NCBI RefSeq assembly: GCF_000018105.1 | Contig: NC_009925.1 | Location: 2,760,001-2,792,000, forward strand | Direction of reading: 5' to 3' | DNA: 32,000 nucleotides | Source: Acaryochloris marina MBIC11017 | Lineage (GTDB): Bacteria > Cyanobacteriota > Cyanobacteriia > Thermosynechococcales > Thermosynechococcaceae | In this document: positions 5,969-29,839 of the stretch, one piece after another | Position numbering within the stretch: position 1 is the first letter of the stretch | Layout of the letters: each line of letters starts with the position of its first letter | The notes under the pieces: generated by a model | What the model saw: only the letters and a program-made list of their open reading frames with translations | Told to the model about the DNA's origin: nothing | The model's database searches: none | Translations under genes and position numbers: made by a program

Positions 5969-6784
5969 GTGACTAAGATCGAAGCTCAGGATTTGAATAG
6001 GTTAAGCCCCATGATGCAAGTAGCCGAGTTGCTGGAGCGCTACGCTGCCGGAGAAAGAGATTTTTGCGAAATAGAGTTAAAAAATGCGGACTTAAGCCAG
6101 CAGAATTTATCTGGCGCCACATTTATTAAGTCCAAATTAAGCCATATGAATTTGGAGAATGCCTACTTATATGGGGTGAACTTCAAACACAGTTATATCG
6201 AAGATACAAACCTGGCGGGTGCCCAGCTTTGTGGCGCCAACCTATGGGGCGTTAATTTTCAGGGTAGTGTGCTGGCAGAGGCAAACCTCAGTGATGCCTA
6301 TATCCGAGGCACCTATCTCCTCAAAGCAGATTTGAGTAAGGTGAATCTTCAGCGAGCCAATTTGCAGCGGTCTTACCTATGGGGGGCAACCCTGAATCAT
6401 GCCGATATGCGGGACGCCAATTTAACCGGCGCAAACTTAGATTCGGCAACCTTAATGTTTGCCGATCTGAGCGAAGCCAACTGCCAAGATAGCTCTATGA
6501 AAGGGGCGAATTTAAGTGGGGCTTGCCTGATTGGAGCTTGCCTGGATCGCGTTAACCTGAGCCACGCCAACCTAAGCATGGCCGAACTCAGCGAAGCGCG
6601 AATGAAGTTTGCCCAACTGACGGACACCATTTTCCAGCAGGCAAACTTAAGCAGCACCAATCTGGCCTACGCCCAAGTGCAGCTACAGAGACTGCAAGAC
6701 GCCATTTTATCTCGCACCATTTTGCCGGATCAGCGGGTGGTCAACAATCTGGCCCCAGCAATGGTCGCTAGCGTCACACACTAA
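5969..6784 (+). CDS. Pentapeptide-repeat protein (cytoplasmic type)
   Basis: 271 aa, with a GTG start at 5969 and an alternative ATG at 6011. A(D/N)LxX repeats run throughout (ADLSQQNLSGATFIKSKLSHMNLENAYL...). The repeats are degenerate at the DNA level. Confidence 0.85.
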   Translation: MTKIEAQDLNRLSPMMQVAELLERYAAGERDFCEIELKNADLSQQNLSGATFIKSKLSHMNLENAYLYGVNFKHSYIEDTNLAGAQLCGANLWGVNFQGSVLAEANLSDAYIRGTYLLKADLSKVNLQRANLQRSYLWGATLNHADMRDANLTGANLDSATLMFADLSEANCQDSSMKGANLSGACLIGACLDRVNLSHANLSMAELSEARMKFAQLTDTIFQQANLSSTNLAYAQVQLQRLQDAILSRTILPDQRVVNNLAPAMVASVTH

Positions 6785-7244
6785 TCGCCCCGGTTTGAAT
6801 CAACTGGCGAATCTCTTGGCGAACTTGCATTAAGATTTTTCCCAGCTGGTTCTGCCCTTTACCATCTGCACCACATCCCCAATAGGGATCTAAAGGCGAA
6901 TTTTCAACAATCAATTCATCCCCCGTGGATAACAGTTCCGCCTGAATCGTCGGATGGGTCAAGAATTTAGTGCGCACGGCAGCATACATAATCTCAGGCT
7001 TGATCACATCCCAATCAGCCTGCTCGGTATAGAGGGGATTACGACCCAGAGCTGCTGCAGCTTCAGGGGTCGATGCCTGTCGAATCTTGTCGCATAAGGC
7101 TTGGTGGGGCGTACCTTGGTATTTTTGGGCTTGATAGTAATGTTCTGAGGTCGGCCAGGTCTGTCCTTGCAGGTCAATACTATGAAGTGAAAAATTGGAA
7201 AAACATCCGTAAGGATCCTGGACTTTGTAGAAAAAAATGGTCAT
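6774..7244 (-). CDS. NADAR (DUF1768 / YbiA-like) family protein
   Basis: 156 aa. FSNFS..., EHYYQAQK and DPYWGCGADGKGQNQLGKILMQVR match the YbiA/NADAR signature. The 3' end overlaps the convergent pentapeptide gene by 11 nt. Confidence 0.8.
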   Translation of the reverse strand: MTIFFYKVQDPYGCFSNFSLHSIDLQGQTWPTSEHYYQAQKYQGTPHQALCDKIRQASTPEAAAALGRNPLYTEQADWDVIKPEIMYAAVRTKFLTHPTIQAELLSTGDELIVENSPLDPYWGCGADGKGQNQLGKILMQVRQEIRQLIQTGAISV

Positions 7245-8729: not shown

Positions 8730-9242
8730 ATGAGATTTGGTGTTTTTGCGATTGCACTCACCCTCGGGGTGACTTTAGGTAGCTCGGCTTTCGCTGCCGA
8801 TCCTAAACATGTTGCTCAGCTCAAACAGGTCAACTCCTGTGAAGGTTGCGATCTCAGTGGCGCTGATTTAAGTGGACTCATTCTAATCCGTGCTAATCTC
8901 CGCAATGCCAACTTGCAAGGGGCGAACCTGCGCAATACCTCGTTACTCCTGAGTAATTTAGAGAACGCTAACTTAGAAAATGCGAATTTCACCGCCGCCT
9001 ATCTATACGGCAGCAACTTAGAAAACACTCAGCTCACCAGCACTGACTTTACCCAAGCCGTTTTACGGAGTGCTAAATTGCAAGGCGCTGATGTGTGTAC
9101 GGCCACCCTTGCCGGAGCAGACTTGACAGATGCTGACGTCGATTTAGACGACTGTCCCCTTGCCCCACCCCCCGGCGCTACAAAGCCAGAGACTCCAGAA
9201 GAAGAATCCTTGATCAAAGATACGCTACCAGAGACTCCTTAA
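8730..9242 (+). CDS. Secreted pentapeptide-repeat protein
   Basis: 170 aa. A signal peptide (MRFGVFAIALTLGVTLGSSAFA) is followed by ADLSGLILIRANLRNANLQGANLRNTSL... and a Pro/Glu-rich tail. Confidence 0.8.
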   Translation: MRFGVFAIALTLGVTLGSSAFAADPKHVAQLKQVNSCEGCDLSGADLSGLILIRANLRNANLQGANLRNTSLLLSNLENANLENANFTAAYLYGSNLENTQLTSTDFTQAVLRSAKLQGADVCTATLAGADLTDADVDLDDCPLAPPPGATKPETPEEESLIKDTLPETP

Positions 9243-10533: not shown

Positions 10534-13500
10534 ATGAAAACATCGGTAGAACTCTCCCAGTCTGTCTCAGATCGTCTATCTGCCTTAATGGACCAAGGGT
10601 TCTATCTCCAGGCCTATGACTTATGCCAGTCCGTTGATCTGCGGTCGACGGGGCCAGACACTACCACCCAACTTTTGGTAGGTCGCCTCACAGGGGCTCT
10701 AGGCGCGCCCCGACAACGAGCAGCGATATTACTTCGAGCTTGGCGGCGGAATCCAGCGGATCCAGATGCGCTGTATTACTACATCAGTACGATGCTTTGG
10801 CGGCAGGGTCCCTTAGCGGCCTATCGTCTGATTCAAAAGCATCAATCGCAATTTGATCACTTCACTCCATATCAACAAGCCCAGTGGCTGGGGTTACAAG
10901 CCCAGGTGGTTTTAGAATTCCGAGACTTTGATCGAACGGACGCCTACCTCCAAGAAGCAAAGATTTTAGCCCCAGAGGATCCCTGGATCACCCTGTTACA
11001 GTCCCGTTTATGGGAGCAAGAAGATCGATATCCAGACGCTTTAGCCATGGCCCAAAAAGCCTTAGCACAGCATCTATGGTATCGCCCTGCCGTATTGGCA
11101 ACAGCCCATTTATATACCCTCTTAAACCAAGATGACCAAGCGCTGGAACTCCTCCAGCAGGCCACCACTCAGCTAGAGAGTGGAGATATTTGGGCCCAAC
11201 TCGCTGCGCTCCAACTGGAGCTGGGGCAGTATACACAAGCTCAGCACAGTTATCAGCAATACGAACAAGCCTGTCCTCTCCTGGACAAGGCCGGGCAATC
11301 TCGACTATGGTCTGCCCAAGCTGACATTGCCTACCAGAGGGGAGATTTTAATCAAGCCCATCACTTGGCTCAGAAATTAACGGAGTACCCCTACTATCAG
11401 TCCTTAGCCCAACGCCTGCTGGAGCTACCCGAGGGAGAACGGGTGATTTTACCCGTCGGTTTTGTCCGTCAGCACCACATGACGTGTGCCCCCGCCACTT
11501 TGACCACCCTTTGTGCCTATTGGGGCACCACGGTGGATCACCAGCAACTTGCGGACAGCATCTGCTACAACGGCACATCTAGCTACAGTGAGCGGGATTG
11601 GGCCAGTCAGCAAGGATGGGCGGTTTGCGAATTTACGGTGACCTGGGACAGCATTATCCAGCTGATTGATGCTGGCATCCCGTTTACCCTCAGTACCGTT
11701 GAAGCCACGTCAGCCCACTTACAAGCCGTGATTGGCTATGACAGTCGCTTGCAGACCCTGATTATTCGTGACCCTTACCATCGGGGTATCGTTGAACCCT
11801 GGGCCAAGGAATTTCTGGAACGATATCAGGCGTCTGGTCCCCGAGGTATGGTGCTCTTGCCACCAGAGAAAGCGGGCTTGTTAGAAACCCTAGACCTTCC
11901 CGATAGCCGCCTTTACGATCAGCTCCATGCACTACAAGCAGCCCTAACCCACCATGATCGCGCCACCGCCGGTGACTGGAGCCAACGGCTGAATGGAGCC
12001 GCCCCTCACCATCGCCTTGCCCTCCAGGCTCAGTTCGAGCTGGCTTATTATGATGCTGACCACACCAGTGCCTTGGCCGTGATCGAACAAATGCTGGAGC
12101 AGTTTCCCGCTGCACCGCATCTGATGTTGCAGAAACTCCAATACTTACAGGAATTGGCCAGCCGCCAAGATTGTGTTGATTGGCTCACGTATGTGATTGA
12201 GCAAGAACAGTTCCATCCCATTTTTTGGACTCGACTCGCCAAGCTCTTAAGTGACGATGCCAGGGCTGATGAATCCGCCATTCGCTTACTGCGACGATCT
12301 ATCCGGGCAATGCCGACGGAAGCCTATAACTACTTTTTACTGGCGAATCTGTATTGGTCACAACGCCAGTTTGACGTCGCACTGGACTTATATCGATTTG
12401 CAGCCTGTCTCGAAGATAAGGAGCAAACCTATGCTCACAACTATTTCCTGGCGGCTCGGGGATGCCGACAAACATCTGTTGCCCTACAGCTATTGAAACA
12501 ACGGTGGAGCCGGGACCAAAAGCGATCGGCCCGTCCTGTTTATGCTTTGGCGACTGCTTATGACCATTTAGACCGCCCTTCCGAGGCCATTGAGGTATTG
12601 GCGCAAACCCAGTCCTGGCATCCGGGCGATGGAGAGTTGCTGTTATATCGGGCCAAGTACTTGGGCGAGCATGGCCAGTTTGATCAAGCCCATGCCCTAT
12701 TGAAGGAGGCCAAAGCTAAGACGGCCCATAGTCGTTGGTTAAGTACGGCGGCCACCCTGGCACAGTATGAATACAAACCTGACCAAGCCCTCGACTTATG
12801 GCAACAGCTCATCAACGCTGATCCCTTAGATATCGAGGCGAATCGCGCCGTTAGTCAACTGTTAGCGGAACAGGAAGGCGTCACTGCCGCCCGTGAGTTT
12901 ATAGCAGCTACCTGCAGCACCTTCCCGGACCATGCAGGGTTACATCACCTCTGGTATCAACAGGTGCAGGAGGGGGATGCGGTCGTTGCAGAACAGGTAC
13001 TACGGCGACTGGTAGACATTAACCCTAAAGACGCTTGGTCTTGGCGACAAATCGCCTGGCAACTCGGTCGACAACAGCAGCTAGAGGCAGGGTTTGACGC
13101 CTGCGAAACAGCTCAGCACTTAGATCCGCACAACCCAGCCTATTTCACCATCTATGGGTATCTCTGGGTTTTAAACAAAGACATTCCCATGGCTAAGACC
13201 GCGTTCAAATCGGCCCTTCAGCGGTCTGTCGATTCTAGCCGAGCCATTTCCGAACTGATCGATATTTGCCAGTCCACAGAAGAGCAAAAAGACGTTATCG
13301 ACTTTATCTTTCACGAGTTTCAGAAACAGGTGATTACGGGGGATGGACTGTTCACCTTTTACCAATACGCGCGCACTGTCTTGACGCCTGAAGACTTTGA
13401 TCAACGCATCCAGGAAGTGCATGCCGCTCGACCCGATTTATGGCAGGTCTGGACCGTTAGAAGTCGGCAACTCCTCAGTAGCGATAGAACAACGGAAGCC

Positions 13501-15591
13501 TTGGCGATTGCAGTGGAAGCATCGGAGCGCTTTCCCCTCTTGCCCCGGGTGTGGGTAGATTTAGCAATCGTGCATCGCACCCGTAAGGATGATGAAGCCG
13601 AAGAACAAGCCCTGCAAACCGCTTTACGAATTAATCCAGGGTGGGATAGTGCCATTCAACAGTTGGCAGATCTCTATGACCGCACGAATGCGCTAGACAA
13701 ATGCAAAGCTCTGTTAGAAACGGCTCTGATGCATTCACCCCTGGAGGCCTATCTTCACGGCTATCTTGCAGATGTGCGGTGGAAACTGGATGACTGTGAG
13801 GCCGCTCTACAACAGTTGCAGAAAGCCCTTCGTCTTGATCCTAGCTATGACTGGGGATGGAACCGGCTCCAAGAATGGGCTCAGACCTTGGAACGTCCCC
13901 ACCTCACCGCAGACATCGCTCGGGAGCTAACGGTCACTCGATCAGGAGAGGCCCAGTCCTGGTTACGGTTGGCTGAATATCTGACTGGAGACGACACGCT
14001 AGATGAACGGATTGCTGCTGTAGACCAGGCCATTGCGCTCAATCCTCGCTGTTGGGATGCCTATGATTTAAAGGCTAAGGTATTGGCGGCAGCGGAGCGA
14101 TACGAAGATGCGATCGCAACCTGCTCTCCCCCTGAAGTCGACGATGACGTCCCCTCATTTTTGGGCGCTCGGGCCGCTTGGATTCAATACCAGCAAGGCC
14201 AATTTGACGAGGCCATCCAAGCCATGAAGACGATTCTGGCCAAAGATCCTGACTATTTCGCAGGATGGCGTATTCTGGCGGATTGGTATCGACAACTCGA
14301 CCACCTAGACGCGTATCTACCGACCGCGCAACAGCTGGTGCGACTGGCTCCACAAGAGTGTATTGCTTGGGGCTATCAGGGAGAAGCCAAACAAAAAACA
14401 GGAGACCGATTAGGCGCAAAAGCAGATTTTCGCAAGGCTTTTGAGCTAGATCCTGAATACAGTTTTGCCGGGTTGAGTCTCTTTGATCTCGAATTAGAGG
14501 GGCTTGAGACTGAGGCAGCCGCCAACACCTTAGCTCGATTAAAAGAGCATTGTAATGATGAATTTGTTTTGGCTCGTGCCGTTCAGCTTGCAGTCAGACA
14601 GAATGACCTGAATACGGCGACTCAAACCTTAGCACAACTCTGTATCTATCCCAGTGACCAGGAATGGCCCTTGGAGGCTGCGGTGGAGTCCATGATTGCT
14701 GCCAATTGGACCACTGAAGCTCAAACTATTCTCTTTGACGCTTTTCCCCAACCCGATGCCCATCCGAAGGTGGGATATCACTGGGTCTACTGTTGTGAGA
14801 AGCTGAAACAACGGAAATTTTGTCAGAAACAATTACAGAAGTTTCATCCTGACCATCCAGTCCAAAGACAGGCCCTGATCACTTATATCCGTCTTTTGGC
14901 CTATCGCAATTCTTCCGGTCCCTTGCTGAAGTTTCTCCGGGAAAACCGAGACCTTTTGCGATCGCACACTGAAACCTGGGGCATTGTGGGTTATGCCTTA
15001 TCAGAACGGCGAGAGCACAAAATCAATCTCAAATGGTTATCCGATTGGAAAGCACGCAGTGAGGTGAAGCCATGGATGCTGCTCAATCTCGTGCAATCAC
15101 TCCAAGCAACCCAGCATCCTGCTGATGCTATCTCAGTTAGTCAATATTCCCTTACCCTTCCAGAAGATGATGGGACCCTAGTCCATCGGCTCTGGCTAGC
15201 TTATGCCGCCAGCCATGAAGGGCAGACTATCAAAGCCAACCATTACTTGCAGGATATTGATCCAAAATATTTAGAGAAGGAGTATCTGTTTCTCCAATAT
15301 CTCGTAAAGGCCAATCTAGCGATTGACTGTACAGAACTGCCTCGTCGTCAGCGTTTGGAGCAAGCCAAGTTACATGTACAGCAAGCGATGGCTGTTCATT
15401 CCGAGTTTCGAACTCGCTTTTATTGGCAGCATGTCTTCTCCAGTAGTGTATGGAGAATTGCGAAACAGAGTCGGAATATCAGCGGTTATATCTGGGCTCT
15501 CTCCCAAAGCATCCCACCTGATATCTTTTGGGCCATCATCTATCTACTGGGAACCCTCTTTTTTCTGATCCTCAAAATTATGAATCCGTAA
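10534..15591 (+). CDS. Giant TPR-repeat protein with embedded C39-like (papain-fold) cysteine peptidase domain and C-terminal transmembrane anchor
   Basis: 1685-aa uninterrupted ORF. The peptidase core is at about 11431-11823: VRQHHMTCAPATLTTLCAYWG (Gln312/Cys318, TGT at 11485-11487), SAHLQAVIGYD (His395) and LIIRDPY (Asp413). TPR-like A/L/Y/W-rich 34-residue periodicity lies on both sides. The last ~30 aa (IFWAIIYLLGTLFFLILKIM) are hydrophobic. Confidence 0.75.
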   Translation: MKTSVELSQSVSDRLSALMDQGFYLQAYDLCQSVDLRSTGPDTTTQLLVGRLTGALGAPRQRAAILLRAWRRNPADPDALYYYISTMLWRQGPLAAYRLIQKHQSQFDHFTPYQQAQWLGLQAQVVLEFRDFDRTDAYLQEAKILAPEDPWITLLQSRLWEQEDRYPDALAMAQKALAQHLWYRPAVLATAHLYTLLNQDDQALELLQQATTQLESGDIWAQLAALQLELGQYTQAQHSYQQYEQACPLLDKAGQSRLWSAQADIAYQRGDFNQAHHLAQKLTEYPYYQSLAQRLLELPEGERVILPVGFVRQHHMTCAPATLTTLCAYWGTTVDHQQLADSICYNGTSSYSERDWASQQGWAVCEFTVTWDSIIQLIDAGIPFTLSTVEATSAHLQAVIGYDSRLQTLIIRDPYHRGIVEPWAKEFLERYQASGPRGMVLLPPEKAGLLETLDLPDSRLYDQLHALQAALTHHDRATAGDWSQRLNGAAPHHRLALQAQFELAYYDADHTSALAVIEQMLEQFPAAPHLMLQKLQYLQELASRQDCVDWLTYVIEQEQFHPIFWTRLAKLLSDDARADESAIRLLRRSIRAMPTEAYNYFLLANLYWSQRQFDVALDLYRFAACLEDKEQTYAHNYFLAARGCRQTSVALQLLKQRWSRDQKRSARPVYALATAYDHLDRPSEAIEVLAQTQSWHPGDGELLLYRAKYLGEHGQFDQAHALLKEAKAKTAHSRWLSTAATLAQYEYKPDQALDLWQQLINADPLDIEANRAVSQLLAEQEGVTAAREFIAATCSTFPDHAGLHHLWYQQVQEGDAVVAEQVLRRLVDINPKDAWSWRQIAWQLGRQQQLEAGFDACETAQHLDPHNPAYFTIYGYLWVLNKDIPMAKTAFKSALQRSVDSSRAISELIDICQSTEEQKDVIDFIFHEFQKQVITGDGLFTFYQYARTVLTPEDFDQRIQEVHAARPDLWQVWTVRSRQLLSSDRTTEALAIAVEASERFPLLPRVWVDLAIVHRTRKDDEAEEQALQTALRINPGWDSAIQQLADLYDRTNALDKCKALLETALMHSPLEAYLHGYLADVRWKLDDCEAALQQLQKALRLDPSYDWGWNRLQEWAQTLERPHLTADIARELTVTRSGEAQSWLRLAEYLTGDDTLDERIAAVDQAIALNPRCWDAYDLKAKVLAAAERYEDAIATCSPPEVDDDVPSFLGARAAWIQYQQGQFDEAIQAMKTILAKDPDYFAGWRILADWYRQLDHLDAYLPTAQQLVRLAPQECIAWGYQGEAKQKTGDRLGAKADFRKAFELDPEYSFAGLSLFDLELEGLETEAAANTLARLKEHCNDEFVLARAVQLAVRQNDLNTATQTLAQLCIYPSDQEWPLEAAVESMIAANWTTEAQTILFDAFPQPDAHPKVGYHWVYCCEKLKQRKFCQKQLQKFHPDHPVQRQALITYIRLLAYRNSSGPLLKFLRENRDLLRSHTETWGIVGYALSERREHKINLKWLSDWKARSEVKPWMLLNLVQSLQATQHPADAISVSQYSLTLPEDDGTLVHRLWLAYAASHEGQTIKANHYLQDIDPKYLEKEYLFLQYLVKANLAIDCTELPRRQRLEQAKLHVQQAMAVHSEFRTRFYWQHVFSSSVWRIAKQSRNISGYIWALSQSIPPDIFWAIIYLLGTLFFLILKIMNP

Positions 15592-24495: not shown

Positions 24496-24539
24496 TGATG
24501 AGGTTGAGTCTGTAAGCATCCACAGCCCTAACCTCATCA
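24496..24539 (+). terminator. Possible hairpin downstream of acs
   Basis: 10-bp inverted repeat TGATGAGGTT / AACCTCATCA with a 24-nt loop, 15 nt after the acs stop. There is no clear U-tract. A second 7-bp hairpin (AGGCCTC/GAGGCCT) lies at 24552-24587. Confidence 0.25.
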
Positions 24540-24756: not shown

Positions 24757-27700
24757 TCAACGATACCGTTCCTTCTCCACCCACTGTTCAGCTTTTTCCA
24801 AGGTCGCAAAACGAGTAGGAAAGCGATCATGGAGAGCCGTTGCAAGTCCATCCCAATCTCTGTTGGAATCAATATCGATATTTGAGGGTAGAAATGCACT
24901 GCATATAAGGGGTGGATCAACACCTTCCAGTTGATCACTCGTTAAGTTTTGAGCATCACTCAAAACCGTTCGTATTAAGAAAGTGTTGCTGAGGTTGGCG
25001 CGGATGAGGTTGGCGCTGCTGAGGTCGGCGCTGCTGAGGTTGGCGCGGATGAGGTTGGCGCGGATGAGGTTGGCGCTGCTGAGGTTGGCGCTGCTGAGGT
25101 TGGCGCTGCGGAGGTCGGCGCTGCGGAGGTTGGCGCGGATGAGGTTGGCGCTGCTGAGGTCGGCGCTGCTGAGGTTGGCGCGGATGAGGTTGGCGCGGAT
25201 GAGGTTGGCGCTGCTGAGGTTGGCGCTGCTGAGGTCGGCGCTGCTGAGGTTGGCGCGGATGAGGTTGGCGCTGCTGAGGTTGGCGCTGCTGAGGTTGGCG
25301 CTGCTGAGGTTGGCGCTGCTGAGGTTGGCGCTGCTGAGGTCGGCGCTGCTGAGGTCGGCGCGGATGAGGTCGGCGCTGCTGAGGTCGGCGCTGCGGAGGT
25401 CGGCGCTTCTGAGGTCGGCGCGGATGAGATAAGGCCCAACCGTTTTAGCAAACATCCCTGTTCCAAGAGCATCTGCATAATGAATAATTTTGAGGAGACG
25501 ATCGGCTTGAAAGCTCTCTGTATCAGCTTGACCACAGGGATAAAAATAGATCTCAGGTTGAGGTGTATCGTCTCCAAGATAGGGATAGCCCCCTGGTTGC
25601 GCAGATGCATGTAGCCTAAATAGAAAAATCATCACGTTTAGCCCCGTAAATACATCTACTTGCTTTAATCCGGTAGGGATCTCGTGGCCTAACAGTTGGA
25701 TCAGTTTCTTCTGGGGAAGATTCTCATTGGGGGGAGCATCCAAAAATTCGTTTTGGCACCAGCGATCATAGAAATTATTGAGGCGATTAAACAGCCGTAC
25801 ACGGTCAATATCGCTCTCATCCAGTAGCTCCCACAAATAGGCGACAATTTCTTGACTCAGGCCGCCATAACCCAATACGTCGTAAATTTGTTCATTCAGT
25901 GCTCGTTCATCTAGCCGAAACCGTTGTCGTTTATCTAACTCCGTCCAGGCTTCAAAGGCGTTCAGTAATCGCTCTGCAAACAAATACTCGCCAAAGCTCT
26001 TGTGGGCAAATTCCACTGAACCCCGTTGATCTCTTTCTCCTGGTTTGAGATAAAAGGTGGTCAGTAAATTATTCAGCGCCTTGTCCTCAGATTGCCCAGT
26101 GGTTGCCTGGGCTTGCTTCAGCAATTCAGCGATGGGATTGCTACTGTCTTGAAACCGCTGCTTCACCATTTCCAGTCGGGCCGTTTCATTGCCCGACTGA
26201 ACCACACACAATGCTGCTTCTTGCAGTATCTCCCGTAAATCTTCCAGGGAATCTAGCCCTGATAGCCGCAAATTCTCATCCTGCCGCTGTTTTTTCAACA
26301 CCCAATTCACCGCTGCTCGATAAATCCGCAGCTTGGCCTGAGTGTCTTGATTAAGACCTGCTTGAGTATCTGCAAACATTCCTTGAGTCAGATGCCCCTC
26401 TCGATTAAGCCGCGCCAGCAAGTACAGCAGAAGCGGCTCACGGGCTAGAGTATCTGTGATGTCTTTGGGGCAGGCTGTCAAAAATTCCCGGAACTGATTG
26501 ACCTTCTCTTCTCCAAATAGGGCTTGCCATTTGTTCAGCCAGCCTTCCCTCAACTGATCTCCCATGGGTTCCAGCCGCACCCGCTCCAGATCTTTATTTT
26601 GGGTGATCAGTCGATCGATTCCTTGCAGCGCTAACGGTCGTCCAGTGACCAATAGCTGATGATGGCTACGCCGCTGAAAATCCGTTACTTGCTGCAAAAA
26701 CTCCTTTAAACCACCCGTAGCCCGCCCTTCTAACAAGAGTTCATCAAAGCCATCCAAAATAATAAAAAATCGAGTGTTTTTATCCGCTAGCCAGCTCGAT
26801 TCCCCGCGCACGAAATTTTCCTGCTCTAAATCGGGGCAGTCTTCTAGTGTTTCCGTTAGATTATTTGCCAGTTTCCGTAGGTCTCGTAACCGAATCCGCA
26901 AGGGAATAAAAGCATCTCCAAATTCCGAGCACACCCAATTGGCAATCATGCGACAAAATACAGATTTCCCTCGGCCTGCCTCGCCTTCCATAAACATCAC
27001 TTTGCGGGGCTGGTTGGCTGGCTGGTCTAAAGTTTTCTTCGTCCATTCATGGCTACAGATGGGACTAACATCACGTTTTACCTCTCCTTCCTGAGTTAAG
27101 GGCTGCACCTCTAGCCGTACATAGATGTCTTGAAAGCTTACTCTGGGGCTACTTTCATCAAAGACCTGCTCCTGTGGAGTAGGTCTTATCCGCGTTTTTA
27201 AATACTCGTCAATAGCCGTATAGCGTTCTAGCTCTTGCTGACCACCCGTGCGGTAAAACTCCGCCAAGGGTTCCACACTTTCCCCAGCTTCTGCAATGAC
27301 CTCATGGAAATACCGATGACTTCCCCACAAGACTTGATCTGCCAATCGTTGGGCTTGGCTGTTGTCCAGTCCAAACTGTTGCAACTGCTCTATCAAATCT
27401 GTTCCAAACTTCTCGGCGAATACAGACTCTCGAAATTGGGTAGTGGCTGTCTTTGCCTCCGTGAGGGTCAGCTCTGTTTTATAAAATTTGGAAAGCTGTT
27501 GCTCGACAACATCCTTAAGCAATAGCTGCGCTAGTTTCGCTTTAATCGTCTCATCTTGTTTCTCCAACACTATTTCTAAACTTCGGAGATAGGCGAGTTG
27601 GGCGACAATTGTGACTGAACTCTCGAAAGTTGGCTCCACTTTTGCCAGTTCAATCCCAATTTTCAGCACGTTAATGCCAGCAGATACAAATGGCAACCCA

Positions 27701-27924
27701 GAAATAGCCAACTTTGTCACTGGCGTATCCAGGGCTTTGATCAGTGGTTCTGCTTTTTGCAAATAAGGGGCAAGCTGTTGAATCTGATCGGCATTGTCCT
27801 GCCAAGCTTTTGCAGCATCCGGCAACGCCTTCATGGCTTCAATGCCTTGTTGGGCCACATCTCCCCAAGGAATATCTCGTACATCCGTATTGAGAAAATC
27901 CCAAAATCCTCTGAGAGCTTTCAT
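24757..27924 (-). CDS. NLR-like STAND NTPase: helical N-terminal region + NACHT P-loop module + C-terminal pentapeptide-repeat array
   Basis: 1055-aa ORF. Walker A is VMFMEGEAGRGKSVFCRMI (about 26962-26988) and Walker B is FFIILDGFDELL. A helical/winged-helix-like middle region follows. The C-terminus has 29 consecutive A(D/N)L(S/R/I)(S/R) pentapeptides plus 2-3 degenerate ones. Confidence 0.9.
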   Translation of the reverse strand: MKALRGFWDFLNTDVRDIPWGDVAQQGIEAMKALPDAAKAWQDNADQIQQLAPYLQKAEPLIKALDTPVTKLAISGLPFVSAGINVLKIGIELAKVEPTFESSVTIVAQLAYLRSLEIVLEKQDETIKAKLAQLLLKDVVEQQLSKFYKTELTLTEAKTATTQFRESVFAEKFGTDLIEQLQQFGLDNSQAQRLADQVLWGSHRYFHEVIAEAGESVEPLAEFYRTGGQQELERYTAIDEYLKTRIRPTPQEQVFDESSPRVSFQDIYVRLEVQPLTQEGEVKRDVSPICSHEWTKKTLDQPANQPRKVMFMEGEAGRGKSVFCRMIANWVCSEFGDAFIPLRIRLRDLRKLANNLTETLEDCPDLEQENFVRGESSWLADKNTRFFIILDGFDELLLEGRATGGLKEFLQQVTDFQRRSHHQLLVTGRPLALQGIDRLITQNKDLERVRLEPMGDQLREGWLNKWQALFGEEKVNQFREFLTACPKDITDTLAREPLLLYLLARLNREGHLTQGMFADTQAGLNQDTQAKLRIYRAAVNWVLKKQRQDENLRLSGLDSLEDLREILQEAALCVVQSGNETARLEMVKQRFQDSSNPIAELLKQAQATTGQSEDKALNNLLTTFYLKPGERDQRGSVEFAHKSFGEYLFAERLLNAFEAWTELDKRQRFRLDERALNEQIYDVLGYGGLSQEIVAYLWELLDESDIDRVRLFNRLNNFYDRWCQNEFLDAPPNENLPQKKLIQLLGHEIPTGLKQVDVFTGLNVMIFLFRLHASAQPGGYPYLGDDTPQPEIYFYPCGQADTESFQADRLLKIIHYADALGTGMFAKTVGPYLIRADLRSADLRSADLSSADLIRADLSSADLSSANLSSANLSSANLSSANLSSANLIRANLSSADLSSANLSSANLIRANLIRANLSSADLSSANLIRANLRSADLRSANLSSANLSSANLIRANLIRANLSSADLSSANLIRANLSNTFLIRTVLSDAQNLTSDQLEGVDPPLICSAFLPSNIDIDSNRDWDGLATALHDRFPTRFATLEKAEQWVEKERYR
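24991..25425 (-). repeat. Tandem array of 29 x 15-bp units inside the NACHT gene, encoding the pentapeptide repeats
   Basis: Plus-strand unit consensus is gaggtYggcgcNNNN. Ten of the 15 positions are invariant in all 29 units. Seven unit variants occur. Segments 24991-25095 and 25126-25230 are identical (105 bp). Confidence 0.95.
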
Positions 27925-28322: not shown

Positions 28323-28625
28323 ATGCTGAATAAATCTCATTCGGCCTCTCATGTGCGCCAAAACTTCTTCAAAGTTCTGGATGAGGTCACCCAAGATCGC
28401 AACGTCGTCCTAATTGAAAGACGAGATGCCCCAGACGTCGCCATCATCTCCGCCGATGAGCTAACCAGCATGATGGAAAGCCTCTACCTGCTGAGATCCC
28501 CCCATAATGCCCAAAGACTGTTTGACGGACTGGCCTGGTCAAAAACCCAAGATCAGAATCCACCTGGCGCAGAAGCTGCCGAACAAGCCATCGCCCAGTT
28601 GAGAGAAGAGATTGAGCAAGCGTAA
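28323..28625 (+). CDS. yefM: Type II antitoxin YefM
   Basis: 100 aa. SASHVRQNFFKVLDEV...VLIERRDAPDVAIISADELTSMMESLYLLRSPHNAQRL closely parallels E. coli YefM (..ETAYLLRSPANARRL..). Confidence 0.9.
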   Translation: MLNKSHSASHVRQNFFKVLDEVTQDRNVVLIERRDAPDVAIISADELTSMMESLYLLRSPHNAQRLFDGLAWSKTQDQNPPGAEAAEQAIAQLREEIEQA

Positions 28626-28917
28626 ATCCAACATATCGGATCAGCCCCTCACCGTCTTTCGACGATACGCCAATCTATCGCCTCAATTTCGAGAAGATCT
28701 CAAAGCTCTCGCTCAAACCGAACCTAAACTCTACGATCGCACCTGGGTGATCATTGATAATACCCTCGAAGATCCGTTTAAGGGCATTGGCAAGCCTGAA
28801 CCCTTGAAGCATATCGGGAGTGATATTTGGTCTCGCCGCTTATCCCATGAGCATCGCATCGTCTATGTGGTCAGGGATGAGCGTATTGACTTTATCCAAG
28901 CCAAATATCATTACTGA
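28612..28917 (+). CDS. yoeB: Type II toxin YoeB/Txe family
   Basis: PFKGIGKPEPLKHIGSDIWSRRLSHEHRIVYVVRDERIDFIQAKYHY matches YoeB (GKGKPEPLKH..WSRRI..EHRLVY....HY). The only in-frame start upstream of the conserved core is TTG at 28612, which overlaps the yefM stop and gives an N-terminal extension of about 17 aa. Confidence 0.85.
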   Translation: MSKRKSNISDQPLTVFRRYANLSPQFREDLKALAQTEPKLYDRTWVIIDNTLEDPFKGIGKPEPLKHIGSDIWSRRLSHEHRIVYVVRDERIDFIQAKYHY

Positions 28918-28984
28918 TGAATAGGGTCATATTGATGTGAGCACGATTTGAACATTCAGCCAATGCTAATGGATGGTGATAGAC

Positions 28985-29839
28985 TCAACCACAATACGGC
29001 TCTGGCTTATCGGCCAAAATATATACCGTCGTTAGATCATTCCAGAGGCCCTGCTCCGTTTGCAGGGCTTCCAGTTCTGCATATAGTTCAGCTTTGATTT
29101 TTCCTAACTCTGTTGCGGAAAACCGGGATCGCCCATCACCAACAACCTTTGGAGCAGTAATAGAAGGATTCACCACAACGCTCTCCCAAATGGCTTTGGC
29201 TTGATCCAGAGTTGTGTAGCTGCCATGTTGCTCGGTATAAATCTCAACCGCCTCAAAACCAGCCTTTTCAAACAACTGCCGACATTGCTCAATCGAACCT
29301 AACCGATTGCTAGGCTCTAGTTCAAGACCATACTCAGCCAGCACTCTGCGTAACACCACAGCCCCAATATAGGCAGTGTCAGCAGGGGTATGAACGGCGA
29401 TGCGCCCCCTGGGCTTGAGTAACTGATACCACAAACGCAATGTCGCGGCTTTATCCGTCATCCAAGGAAACGTATGGGCACAAAGGATAACGTCAAAATG
29501 ATGGCTGGGATAGTCCAGGGCTTCAGCATCAGCCCGTTGAACCACAACGTTGCTCAGTCCTAACCGCTGAATTTTGCGCTGTGCTTGCTGCAGCATACCT
29601 GGAGAAATATCTACGCCAGTCACATGTCCTTGATCGCCAACTCGTTGGGCAGATGCGATCGCAAGGTAGCCGGTTCCTGTACCAATATCTAAAACCGTCT
29701 GACCAGCACCAATCCGCGCATATTCCAGCAGGCGGTCACAAATTTGAGGGTGCCACTGCCCCTGGTCATAACTTCGACTCCTACGATCATAAAAGTCTGC
29801 AACCCCTTGTTTAAATTTATCTAATGCAAGTGGTTTCAC
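28985..29839 (-). CDS. Class I SAM-dependent methyltransferase
   Basis: 284 aa with SAM-binding motif I, VLDIGTGTGYLAI. Post-I acidic residue context is VTGVDISPGM and motif IV-like context is FDVILCAHTFPW. The substrate is unknown. Confidence 0.8.
   Translation of the reverse strand: MKPLALDKFKQGVADFYDRRSRSYDQGQWHPQICDRLLEYARIGAGQTVLDIGTGTGYLAIASAQRVGDQGHVTGVDISPGMLQQAQRKIQRLGLSNVVVQRADAEALDYPSHHFDVILCAHTFPWMTDKAATLRLWYQLLKPRGRIAVHTPADTAYIGAVVLRRVLAEYGLELEPSNRLGSIEQCRQLFEKAGFEAVEIYTEQHGSYTTLDQAKAIWESVVVNPSITAPKVVGDGRSRFSATELGKIKAELYAELEALQTEQGLWNDLTTVYILADKPEPYCG

Follow-up and report, generated by a model that had tools for sequence, protein, structure and literature searches.

The window analyzed here is a stretch of 32,000 nucleotides from the chromosome of Acaryochloris marina MBIC 11017 (contig NC_009925.1, positions 2,760,001 to 2,792,000), and the subject of this paper is one gene on its reverse strand, which encodes a STAND/NLR-like protein with a NACHT nucleoside triphosphatase (NTPase) and a C-terminal array of pentapeptide repeats. 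The product is identical to ABW27749.1, WP_012163196.1, and UniProt B0C968, and the database annotation of WP_012163196.1 reads only “pentapeptide repeat-containing protein.” The protein is almost certainly a NACHT switch of the NLR type whose sensor domain is made of pentapeptide repeats. An earlier prediction, made from the letters of the window (hereafter, the original prediction), had proposed that the array acts as a DNA mimic. The more interesting property of the gene is its hypervariable array, which is like those of fungal NLRs, together with the existence of near-isogenic allele pairs. The coordinates of the gene and its parts are given in Table 1.

Table 1. Features of the NACHT–pentapeptide gene and of the adjoining toxin–antitoxin pair, in positions of the window
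Feature	Position	Strand	Basis or remark
Complete coding sequence, 1055 residues plus stop	24757..27924	(-)	Open reading frame (ORF) intact
NNH3 (PF22735, NACHT N-terminal Helical domain 3), residues 48-258	27151..27783	(-)	Pfam E=5e-50; N-terminal effector/adaptor position
NACHT (PF05729) NTPase core, residues 309-466	26527..27000	(-)	Pfam 35.2 bits vs gathering cut-off 26.7
Walker A / P-loop GEAGRGKS, residues 314-321	26962..26985	(-)	Fits GxxxxGK[ST]
Walker B ILDGFDE, residues 389-395	26740..26760	(-)	Carries NACHT-diagnostic D[GAS]hDE signature
Helical / winged-helix-like region after the NTPase core, residues 467-832	25429..26526	(-)	Predicted from model and alignment
Pentapeptide-repeat array, residues 833-992, 32 pentads, about 8 coils of predicted beta-helix	24949..25428	(-)	PF00805 E=4e-40
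Homogeneous array core, 29 units of 15 nucleotides, skeleton GCC-[G/A]AC-CTC-NNC-NNC	24987..25421	(-)	Tandem Repeats Finder (TRF), 90% matches
C-terminal tail, 63 residues, residues 993-1055	24760..24948	(-)	Motif QLEG..PPLIC..LP..IDxNRDWD.L...LH.R(Y/F)P..F.TLE.AE.WVE
YefM antitoxin (28323-28625) and YoeB toxin (28612-28917)	28323..28917	(+)	Pfam; divergent, directly upstream of the gene

Domain organization, predicted structure, and family

The tripartite STAND/NLR layout described in the original prediction was confirmed: Pfam identified NNH3, a NACHT domain above its cut-off, and the pentapeptide array, so that both of the profiles singled out beforehand (PF05729 and PF00805) matched, and the predicted fold was NLR-like. 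The Walker A and Walker B motifs are intact, as had been stated, and the latter carries the D[GAS]hDE signature that sets NACHT apart from other STAND proteins according to the definition of Kibby et al. (bioRxiv 10.1101/2022.07.19.500537). Residues A316, G317, G319, K320, and S321, residues D391, G392, D394, and E395, and a T427-G428-R429 motif were invariant in 89 aligned homologs, down to 44% identity, and the NTPase is therefore under purifying selection. The earlier estimate of approximately 31 repeats in 7–8 coils agrees well with the 32 pentads, or 8 coils, counted here. The N-terminal region had been called uncharacterized; it corresponds to a named Pfam domain, NNH3. Two further ORFs run through the repeats, one of 211 residues with “APTSA” repeats (24975–25610, reverse strand) and one of 149 residues with “LLRLA” repeats (24983–25432, forward strand); these are alternative frames of the 15-nucleotide array and not genes.

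An AlphaFold2 model was built on the 89-sequence alignment, with a mean predicted local distance difference test score (pLDDT) of 84 and a predicted template modeling score (pTM) of 0.76, and residues 1–90 alone had pLDDT < 50. The beta-helix that the original prediction had expected from such a model was present in residues 833–992, with pLDDT > 90 and one strand residue per five, and it superposes on Np275/276 of Nostoc (2j8k), which was the best natural match of the C-terminal part in the PDB by Foldseek (TM 0.86, root-mean-square deviation 0.8 Å, 46% identity). In a Foldseek search of the PDB, the central module aligned with NLRP3 (7pzc, 9gu4), NOD2 (5irm), and NLRC4 (4kxf) over approximately 570–610 columns (E 1e-10 to 1e-12). 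The structural alignment to these NLR NACHT modules takes in the helical/winged-helix extension at residues 467–832, a region whose conservation is second only to that of the NTPase (mean identity to the query, 52–63%). A sequence-profile search of the PDB with the family profile returned pentapeptide proteins only, and no solved close relative of the NACHT module. In the model, NNH3 is all-helical and the tail contains helices at residues 1024–1034 and 1042–1052. When residues 1–300 were modeled separately, the pLDDT was 65.6, with residues 1–94 < 50. NNH3 contains a conserved, moderately hydrophobic segment with Pro and Gly residues (residues 68–95), in which P68 and P78 are invariant in the alignment, and a membrane-active role of NNH3 would be a guess from this segment.

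To collect the family, the non-repeat 832 residues were used as the query. At least 783 proteins at 90% clustering matched, almost all of them cyanobacterial, and the NNH3+NACHT+Pentapeptide architecture persists down to approximately 43% identity; among the genera represented are Leptolyngbya, Nostoc, Dolichospermum, Laspinema, Cylindrospermum, and Spirulina. A HMMER search of 1.84 billion representatives gave 235 clusters (50% identity) at a threshold of E ≤ 1e-30 and 464 when the threshold was relaxed to E ≤ 1e-10, and a search with the NNH3 profile alone returned mostly gene fragments. The relatives that match from NACHT onward only still have a pentapeptide C-terminus, and their N-termini differ (an extra AAA_16/nSTAND2 ATPase, long inserts, or unannotated sequence). 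NACHT and the pentapeptide repeats are the constant core of these proteins, the N-terminal position being the more variable. Across the family, the array always starts near residues 815–845, and its length ranges from approximately 6 to 63 pentads.

This architecture has been catalogued before. Kibby et al. (bioRxiv 10.1101/2022.07.19.500537; Cell 2023) surveyed approximately 20,000 bacterial NACHT proteins, and their Table S1 lists “NNH3+NACHT+Pentapeptide...” and “NNH4+NACHT+Pentapeptide” under clade 9, with source organisms that include Nostoc, Anabaena, Symploca, Leptolyngbya, Vibrio, and Nitrospirae. Since it has architecture and taxa in common with these entries, we infer that the present protein belongs with the clade 9 listing; the protein itself was not found in the part of the table consulted. 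The original prediction had called a DNA-mimicking sensor or decoy fused to a NACHT switch mechanistically new; in view of these entries, that novelty would come down to the DNA-mimic idea alone. The further statement that the architecture has not been characterized experimentally agrees with the literature searched, in which no later experimental work on NNH3+NACHT+Pentapeptide proteins was found. In their Supplementary Discussion, Kibby et al. group pentapeptide repeats with LRR, TPR, HEAT, and beta-propellers as sensors of the “antigen receptor type,” whose possible ligands would be a component of the phage or a host protein under guard (bioRxiv 10.1101/2022.07.19.500537).

Composition and variation of the pentapeptide array

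In all 29 core units of the MBIC 11017 array, Ala is encoded by GCC and Leu by CTC, and the units differ only at positions i-1 (AAC or GAC), i+1 (AGC, ATC, or CGC), and i+2 (AGC or CGC). Pairwise comparison of codons inside this array gave 3 synonymous and 614 non-synonymous differences, and the corresponding counts in the plasmid-borne arrays of A. marina S15 and Acaryochloris sp. “Moss Beach” were 0/999 and 0/617. Positions i-2 and i of a pentad reportedly face into the helix, whereas i-1, i+1, and i+2 face outward (Vetting et al., 2006); therefore, all of the unit variation in the window array lies on the predicted surface. Family-wide, the entropy was 3.3 bits at i+1, 3.1 at i+2, 2.3 at i-1, 1.1 at i-2, and 0.6 at i. 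The mean nucleotide identity between units was 0.82–0.87 in three Acaryochloris arrays (MBIC 11017, S15, and Moss Beach) and 0.55–0.72 in five more distant homologs. The window contains two free-standing pentapeptide genes, which served as a control; their mean unit nucleotide identity was 0.41. These two genes, at 5969–6784 (271 residues) and 8730–9242 (170 residues), both on the forward strand, have ordinary degenerate repeats.

The codon usage of the array is also distinctive. Third codon positions in the array core are C in 144 of 145 cases, against 17% in the rest of the gene, where CTC, AAC, and GAC are minor codons. Of the four-fold sites over residues 1–828, 24.7% differ between the MBIC 11017 and S15 alleles, whereas the array skeleton is identical. 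Homologs down to 44% identity also show the consensus GCC-AAC-CTC and third positions rich in C, which the window's free-standing pentapeptide genes lack. Across the window, S15, and Moss Beach arrays and six other homolog loci, the skeleton can be written GCC-[G/A/T]AC-CTC-NNC-NNC. Concerted evolution explains the homogeneity within an array, but not obviously the conservation of synonymous positions across genera, and the latter could indicate a dedicated DNA-level mechanism or a constraint beyond slippage. Mutagenesis of the array by a diversity-generating retroelement was considered and rejected: no reverse transcriptase or template repeat was found among the window ORFs examined, and the changes are not adenine-specific (for example, AGC to ATC is a G to T change). 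A bolder suggestion, which we regard as possible but rather doubtful, is that such arrays are purpose-built, rapidly reprogrammable receptors, in which 15-nucleotide cassettes would be gained, lost, and shuffled so that the surface is altered and the fold kept, as a bacterial counterpart of the diversification of fungal NLRs whose repeats have high internal conservation (HIC).

Five Acaryochloris alleles, 84–92% identical outside the array, have approximately 23–39 units and almost non-overlapping surface repertoires. Four of them are full-length, with arrays that begin after residue 828, and the remaining one (P0046) is an N-terminally truncated fragment from Moss Beach. The main i+1/i+2 pairs are SS, IR, and RS in MBIC 11017; SR, FS, and RS in S15; IN, SN, and IS in P0002; SF, NG, and NS in P0003; and HL, SG, and SN in Moss Beach (P0046). 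The closest comparison is provided by the A. marina strain AP026075 (GCA_024347835.1), in which the locus is syntenic with the window (DUF1232, methyltransferase, YoeB/YefM, the NLR-like gene, and acs). Between AP026075 and MBIC 11017, there was no difference in the first 2,496 or in the last 192 nucleotides of the gene, i.e., in the 2,688 nucleotides outside the array, and the 12,757 nucleotides outside the array in the gene and its flanks contained two mismatches and one gap of 3 nucleotides. Relative to MBIC 11017, the AP026075 array has one unit substitution, a deletion of 3 units, and a replacement of 1 unit by 6 units with a new AYLRS unit, for a net gain of 2 units. At this locus, the array is the hotspot of mutation. 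The original prediction had regarded a dispensable and invariant repeat region as a sign that its idea was wrong; the region in fact varies strongly among strains, in number, order, and surface residues, as expected of the sensor of an immune receptor and not of a DNA mimic.

Some alleles also vary downstream of the array or are incompletely assembled. In P0003 (an A. marina allele with 84% identity), an unrelated C-terminal region of 212 residues (residues 951–1162), with a weak sub-threshold HrcA_C-like match, replaces the 63-residue tail, which indicates modular exchange downstream of the array. Several draft or metagenome contigs and “partial” proteins (e.g., P0020 and P0036) stop in or just before the array, and a scan of genome contigs with the single protein gave four loci, of which two were truncated within the array or ahead of it. 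Evidently, short-read assemblies break at the repeat, and array lengths in drafts need care.

Genomic context and mobility

The original prediction placed the gene among toxin–antitoxin and other conflict-type genes. This holds for the one YefM/YoeB pair directly upstream, but the remaining close neighbors are metabolic (acetyl-CoA synthetase, S-adenosylmethionine methyltransferase, and glycolate-oxidase-like genes). A NADAR-domain protein (6774–7244) and a DUF559 endonuclease-like protein (1388–1822), both on the reverse strand and both of conflict-associated types, lie > 17 kb from the gene and have no link to it. YefM/YoeB adjoins the gene in two chromosomal A. marina alleles only and is absent near the plasmid alleles and other homologs; it is probably a neighbor and not a functional partner. 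Elsewhere in the window, at 10534–15591 on the forward strand, a protein of 1685 residues has many TPR repeats and a Peptidase_C39_2 (C39-like cysteine peptidase) domain.

The NACHT–pentapeptide gene is accessory and mobile, and not the conserved syntenic core gene that the original prediction had named as a possible refutation. In two strains (MBIC 11017 and AP026075), it lies on the chromosome beside acs and yefM/yoeB; in two others, it is plasmid-borne, and one of these plasmid copies is disrupted by an insertion sequence. The plasmids, a 310-kb plasmid of A. marina S15 (unnamed8) and the 277-kb pMB02 of Acaryochloris sp. “Moss Beach,” carry an 89%-identical ortholog. The neighborhood common to S15 and Moss Beach is rich in genes of conflict type and comprises ParB, an NB-ARC STAND protein, a Ser/Thr kinase, a weakly TPR-like hypothetical protein, the NLR-like gene, a CHAT-TPR protease, and ShlB/FhaC two-partner secretion. 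A 57%-identical paralog in the AP026075 strain lies among housekeeping genes, and homologs in other genera have unrelated neighbors, one being near Abi_C and one near Uma2 and DUF4231. No neighbor is conserved, and the protein therefore most likely acts alone. Around the window gene, promoter and terminator scans gave results no better than shuffles. An imperfect inverted repeat of 24 nucleotides (24499–24522 / 28970–28993, 20/24 complementary) encloses the gene and yefM/yoeB between the acs and methyltransferase stop codons; no second copy of it was found in the window, and the methyltransferase stop codon falls within its right arm. Either a 4.45-kb insertion left it behind as a scar or it arose by chance, and it is a weak lead.

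A phage connection was found at one homolog, P0017 of Leptolyngbya sp. SIO1E4 (66% identical; JAAHFU020000003.1, 1–15258), which lies inside a prophage-like cluster with Phage_pRha, a helix-turn-helix protein, small unannotated ORFs, Terminase_3, and a small terminase, and with a second pentapeptide protein immediately downstream. No relative was detected when IMG/VR viral contigs were scanned with the family alignment, and tblastn against 50,697 phage genomes gave no match; thus, this one prophage-like context aside, the family is not obviously phage-encoded. The PHROGs matches run through the repeats only, with the exception of phrog_923 (phage proteins of approximately 990 residues), for which positions 793–954 of the 990 in the profile align with residues 892–1049 (E=3.4e-32) and the match appears to enter the tail. 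Among NCBIfam models, there were only sub-threshold pentapeptide matches and a weak, NACHT-level match to DS8_antiphage (32 bits against a cut-off of 790).

Proposed function, alternatives, and comparison with known systems

From the NLR/STAND paradigm and the bacterial NACHT proteins (bNACHTs) of other clades that have been tested, we infer a function for this protein by analogy. We consider it probable, though well short of assured, that it is a self-contained NLR-type sensor for conflict or immunity with the array as its specificity determinant. In this model, the surface of the beta-helix would serve both as the specificity-determining sensor and as an autoinhibitory element, and would bind a phage-derived or infection-altered protein. 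Ligand binding would release the autoinhibition and allow nucleotide exchange and NTP-dependent oligomerization through NACHT, and the clustered NNH3 domains might then execute growth arrest or cell death themselves or recruit an effector that does so (abortive infection). The number and order of the units and the residues at their three outward-facing positions change very fast, through the gain, loss, and reshuffling of 15-nucleotide units, and the inward-facing Ala (i-2) and Leu (i) are retained; in the model, slippage would be what diversifies the array surface.

Several observations weigh against this model. PADLOC returned no match for the window protein, its immediate chromosomal neighborhood consists mostly of housekeeping genes, and, in the survey of Kibby et al., the 27 tested bNACHT proteins are listed with only LRR, HEAT, REase, TIR, TM, NNH1, and NCH1 domains, none having NNH3 or pentapeptide repeats (bioRxiv 10.1101/2022.07.19.500537). 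The NNH3 model had no significant structural neighbor in the PDB (best E=0.44), and what the output step would be is conjectural. Fast change is what a perfect 15-nucleotide tandem repeat would undergo in any case, by slippage or unequal recombination, and fast change of the array is therefore not proof of selection; some of the differences seen within the array from one assembly to another could also be assembly errors. Alleles P0002 (92% identical) and P0008 enter an alternative frame inside the array, by frameshift or sequencing error, and the Moss Beach copy is a pseudogene with two insertions, an annotated IS4 element after approximately residue 59 and a 1.1-kb insertion at residue 331. 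The frameshifted alleles and the pseudogene fit relaxed constraint as well as they fit an arms race. They also speak for the explanation that array variation is neutral, the repeat slipping and recombining in a STAND ATPase gene that is dispensable or in decay, with a repeat domain that has no specific ligand and serves, for example, as a scaffold or spacer. The pentad number also shows no preference for whole coils (counts modulo 4 of 13, 22, 23, and 35), and contigs often break in the array. We nevertheless judge neutrality to be quite improbable. The reading frame and the 63-residue tail are kept behind arrays of very different length in most homologs of the closer subfamily, the NTPase motifs are invariant as described above, and the family is large and old. 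Moreover, variation restricted to outward positions, with synonymous variation essentially absent, is not expected from random mutation without selection.

Two further explanations keep the NACHT protein functional but assign it a different ligand or role. One is that the same NLR-type switch has a non-phage role, either in conspecific non-self recognition or in regulated cell death on other biotic or stress cues, as in the fungal HET-E/NWD NLRs. The evolutionary pattern does fit that of fungal allorecognition NLRs, with internally conserved repeats, number polymorphism, and surface variation (PMC4986451; PMC13449251). Paralogs are numerous in cyanobacteria, especially multicellular ones, and the plasmid alleles adjoin NB-ARC, kinase, CHAT protease, and two-partner-secretion genes. 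Acaryochloris, however, is unicellular, and one homolog lies in a prophage-like region, which is a typical place for anti-phage genes. Moreover, defense against phage is the only function for which bacterial NACHT proteins have been tested (bioRxiv 10.1101/2022.07.19.500537), and we regard a non-phage role as unlikely.

The other explanation is that of the original prediction, in which the pentapeptide beta-helix mimics DNA, as in Qnr and MfpA, and is coupled to the NACHT switch as a bait or decoy that attracts phage proteins able to bind or modify DNA. Some pentapeptide proteins do inhibit DNA-binding proteins (Kaur et al., 2020). The DNA mimics MfpA and QnrB1 have the same fold and were among the lower structural matches in Foldseek (E approximately 1e-6), but the best ones were cyanobacterial pentapeptide proteins (Np275/276 and HetL). 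Since pentapeptide proteins are very common in cyanobacteria, with two free-standing ones in the window itself, the fold alone implies no DNA mimicry. A strongly electronegative surface is said to underlie the mimicry of DNA by MfpA (Hegde et al., 2005). By sequence-level charge counts, the net charge of the array is approximately +2 in MBIC 11017 and ranges from -17 to +6 in 93 homologs (median -3, or -0.11 per pentad), and therefore such a surface is neither present here nor conserved in the family. An array length of approximately 6 to 63 pentads is incompatible with a fixed DNA-like geometry, and the NCBIfam models for Qnr and MfpA scored far below their cut-offs (penta_rpt_Qnr, 44.9 bits against 240; mfpA, 26.1 against 360). 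The proposal of a DNA-mimicking sensor is not supported by these comparisons, and we consider it very improbable.

The NNH3+NACHT+Pentapeptide architecture is abundant in cyanobacteria. Its array is an unusually simple system for learning how specificity is coded in an NLR sensor, with three surface residues per 5-residue unit on a rigid scaffold, and the MBIC 11017 and AP026075 genes, natural alleles that are identical except in the array, would make specificity directly testable. If the conflict-sensor model is correct, it would extend the diversification of NLR receptors by repeat shuffling, documented for WD40, ANK, TPR, and LRR, to pentapeptide repeats. If the array is not an immune sensor, it is still a striking mutational hotspot inside a conserved gene.

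Among bacterial systems, the protein shares with the clade 9 bNACHTs of Kibby et al. the domain order and families, the taxon range, and the single-gene organization, and the anti-phage role would be an extrapolation to clade 9 from tested bNACHTs elsewhere, such as bNACHT01, which carry LRR, HEAT, TIR, or REase domains and belong to other clades. With MfpA, Qnr, and AlbG/McbG, it has in common a predicted right-handed quadrilateral beta-helix formed from A(D/N)LXX pentads; those proteins are free-standing dimers, whereas the array described here is not acidic, is not of fixed length, and is one domain of a 1055-residue STAND protein. The metazoan NLRs NLRP3, NOD2, and NLRC4 follow the same tripartite logic of effector, NACHT, and repeats, and their central modules align with that of the model, at a sequence identity of 12–15%. 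In contrast to their curved LRR solenoid, the sensor here is a straight beta-helix, and the N-terminus is NNH3 instead of PYD or CARD.

The closest parallel to the array itself comes from fungi, in which NLRs with WD40, ANK, or TPR repeats of high internal conservation undergo unit shuffling and diversification at surface positions (PMC4986451). Bacterial NLRs with HIC repeats are also on record, from surveys limited to ANK, TPR, WD40, and LRR (PMC13449251). For the comparison, we used the HET-E/NWD family (Paoletti, 2007; Dyrka, 2014; Ament-Velasquez and Saupe, 2026). Common to both are a NACHT switch with a C-terminal, superstructure-forming repeat whose units are near-identical in DNA, polymorphism in unit number and order from strain to strain, and differences at predicted surface positions only. 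The amino acid identity of the units to their consensus, computed by hand from the unit counts, is approximately 79%, which is below the 85% criterion of Dyrka (2014; PMC4986451) because three of the five residues per unit are variable. The fungal HIC units have approximately 33–42 residues, whereas the repeat here is a pentapeptide beta-helix with a unit of 5 residues (15 nucleotides), and its host, unlike those of the fungal HIC NLRs, is unicellular. With these differences, the behavior of the array appears to parallel that of the hypervariable repeat sensors of fungal NLRs.

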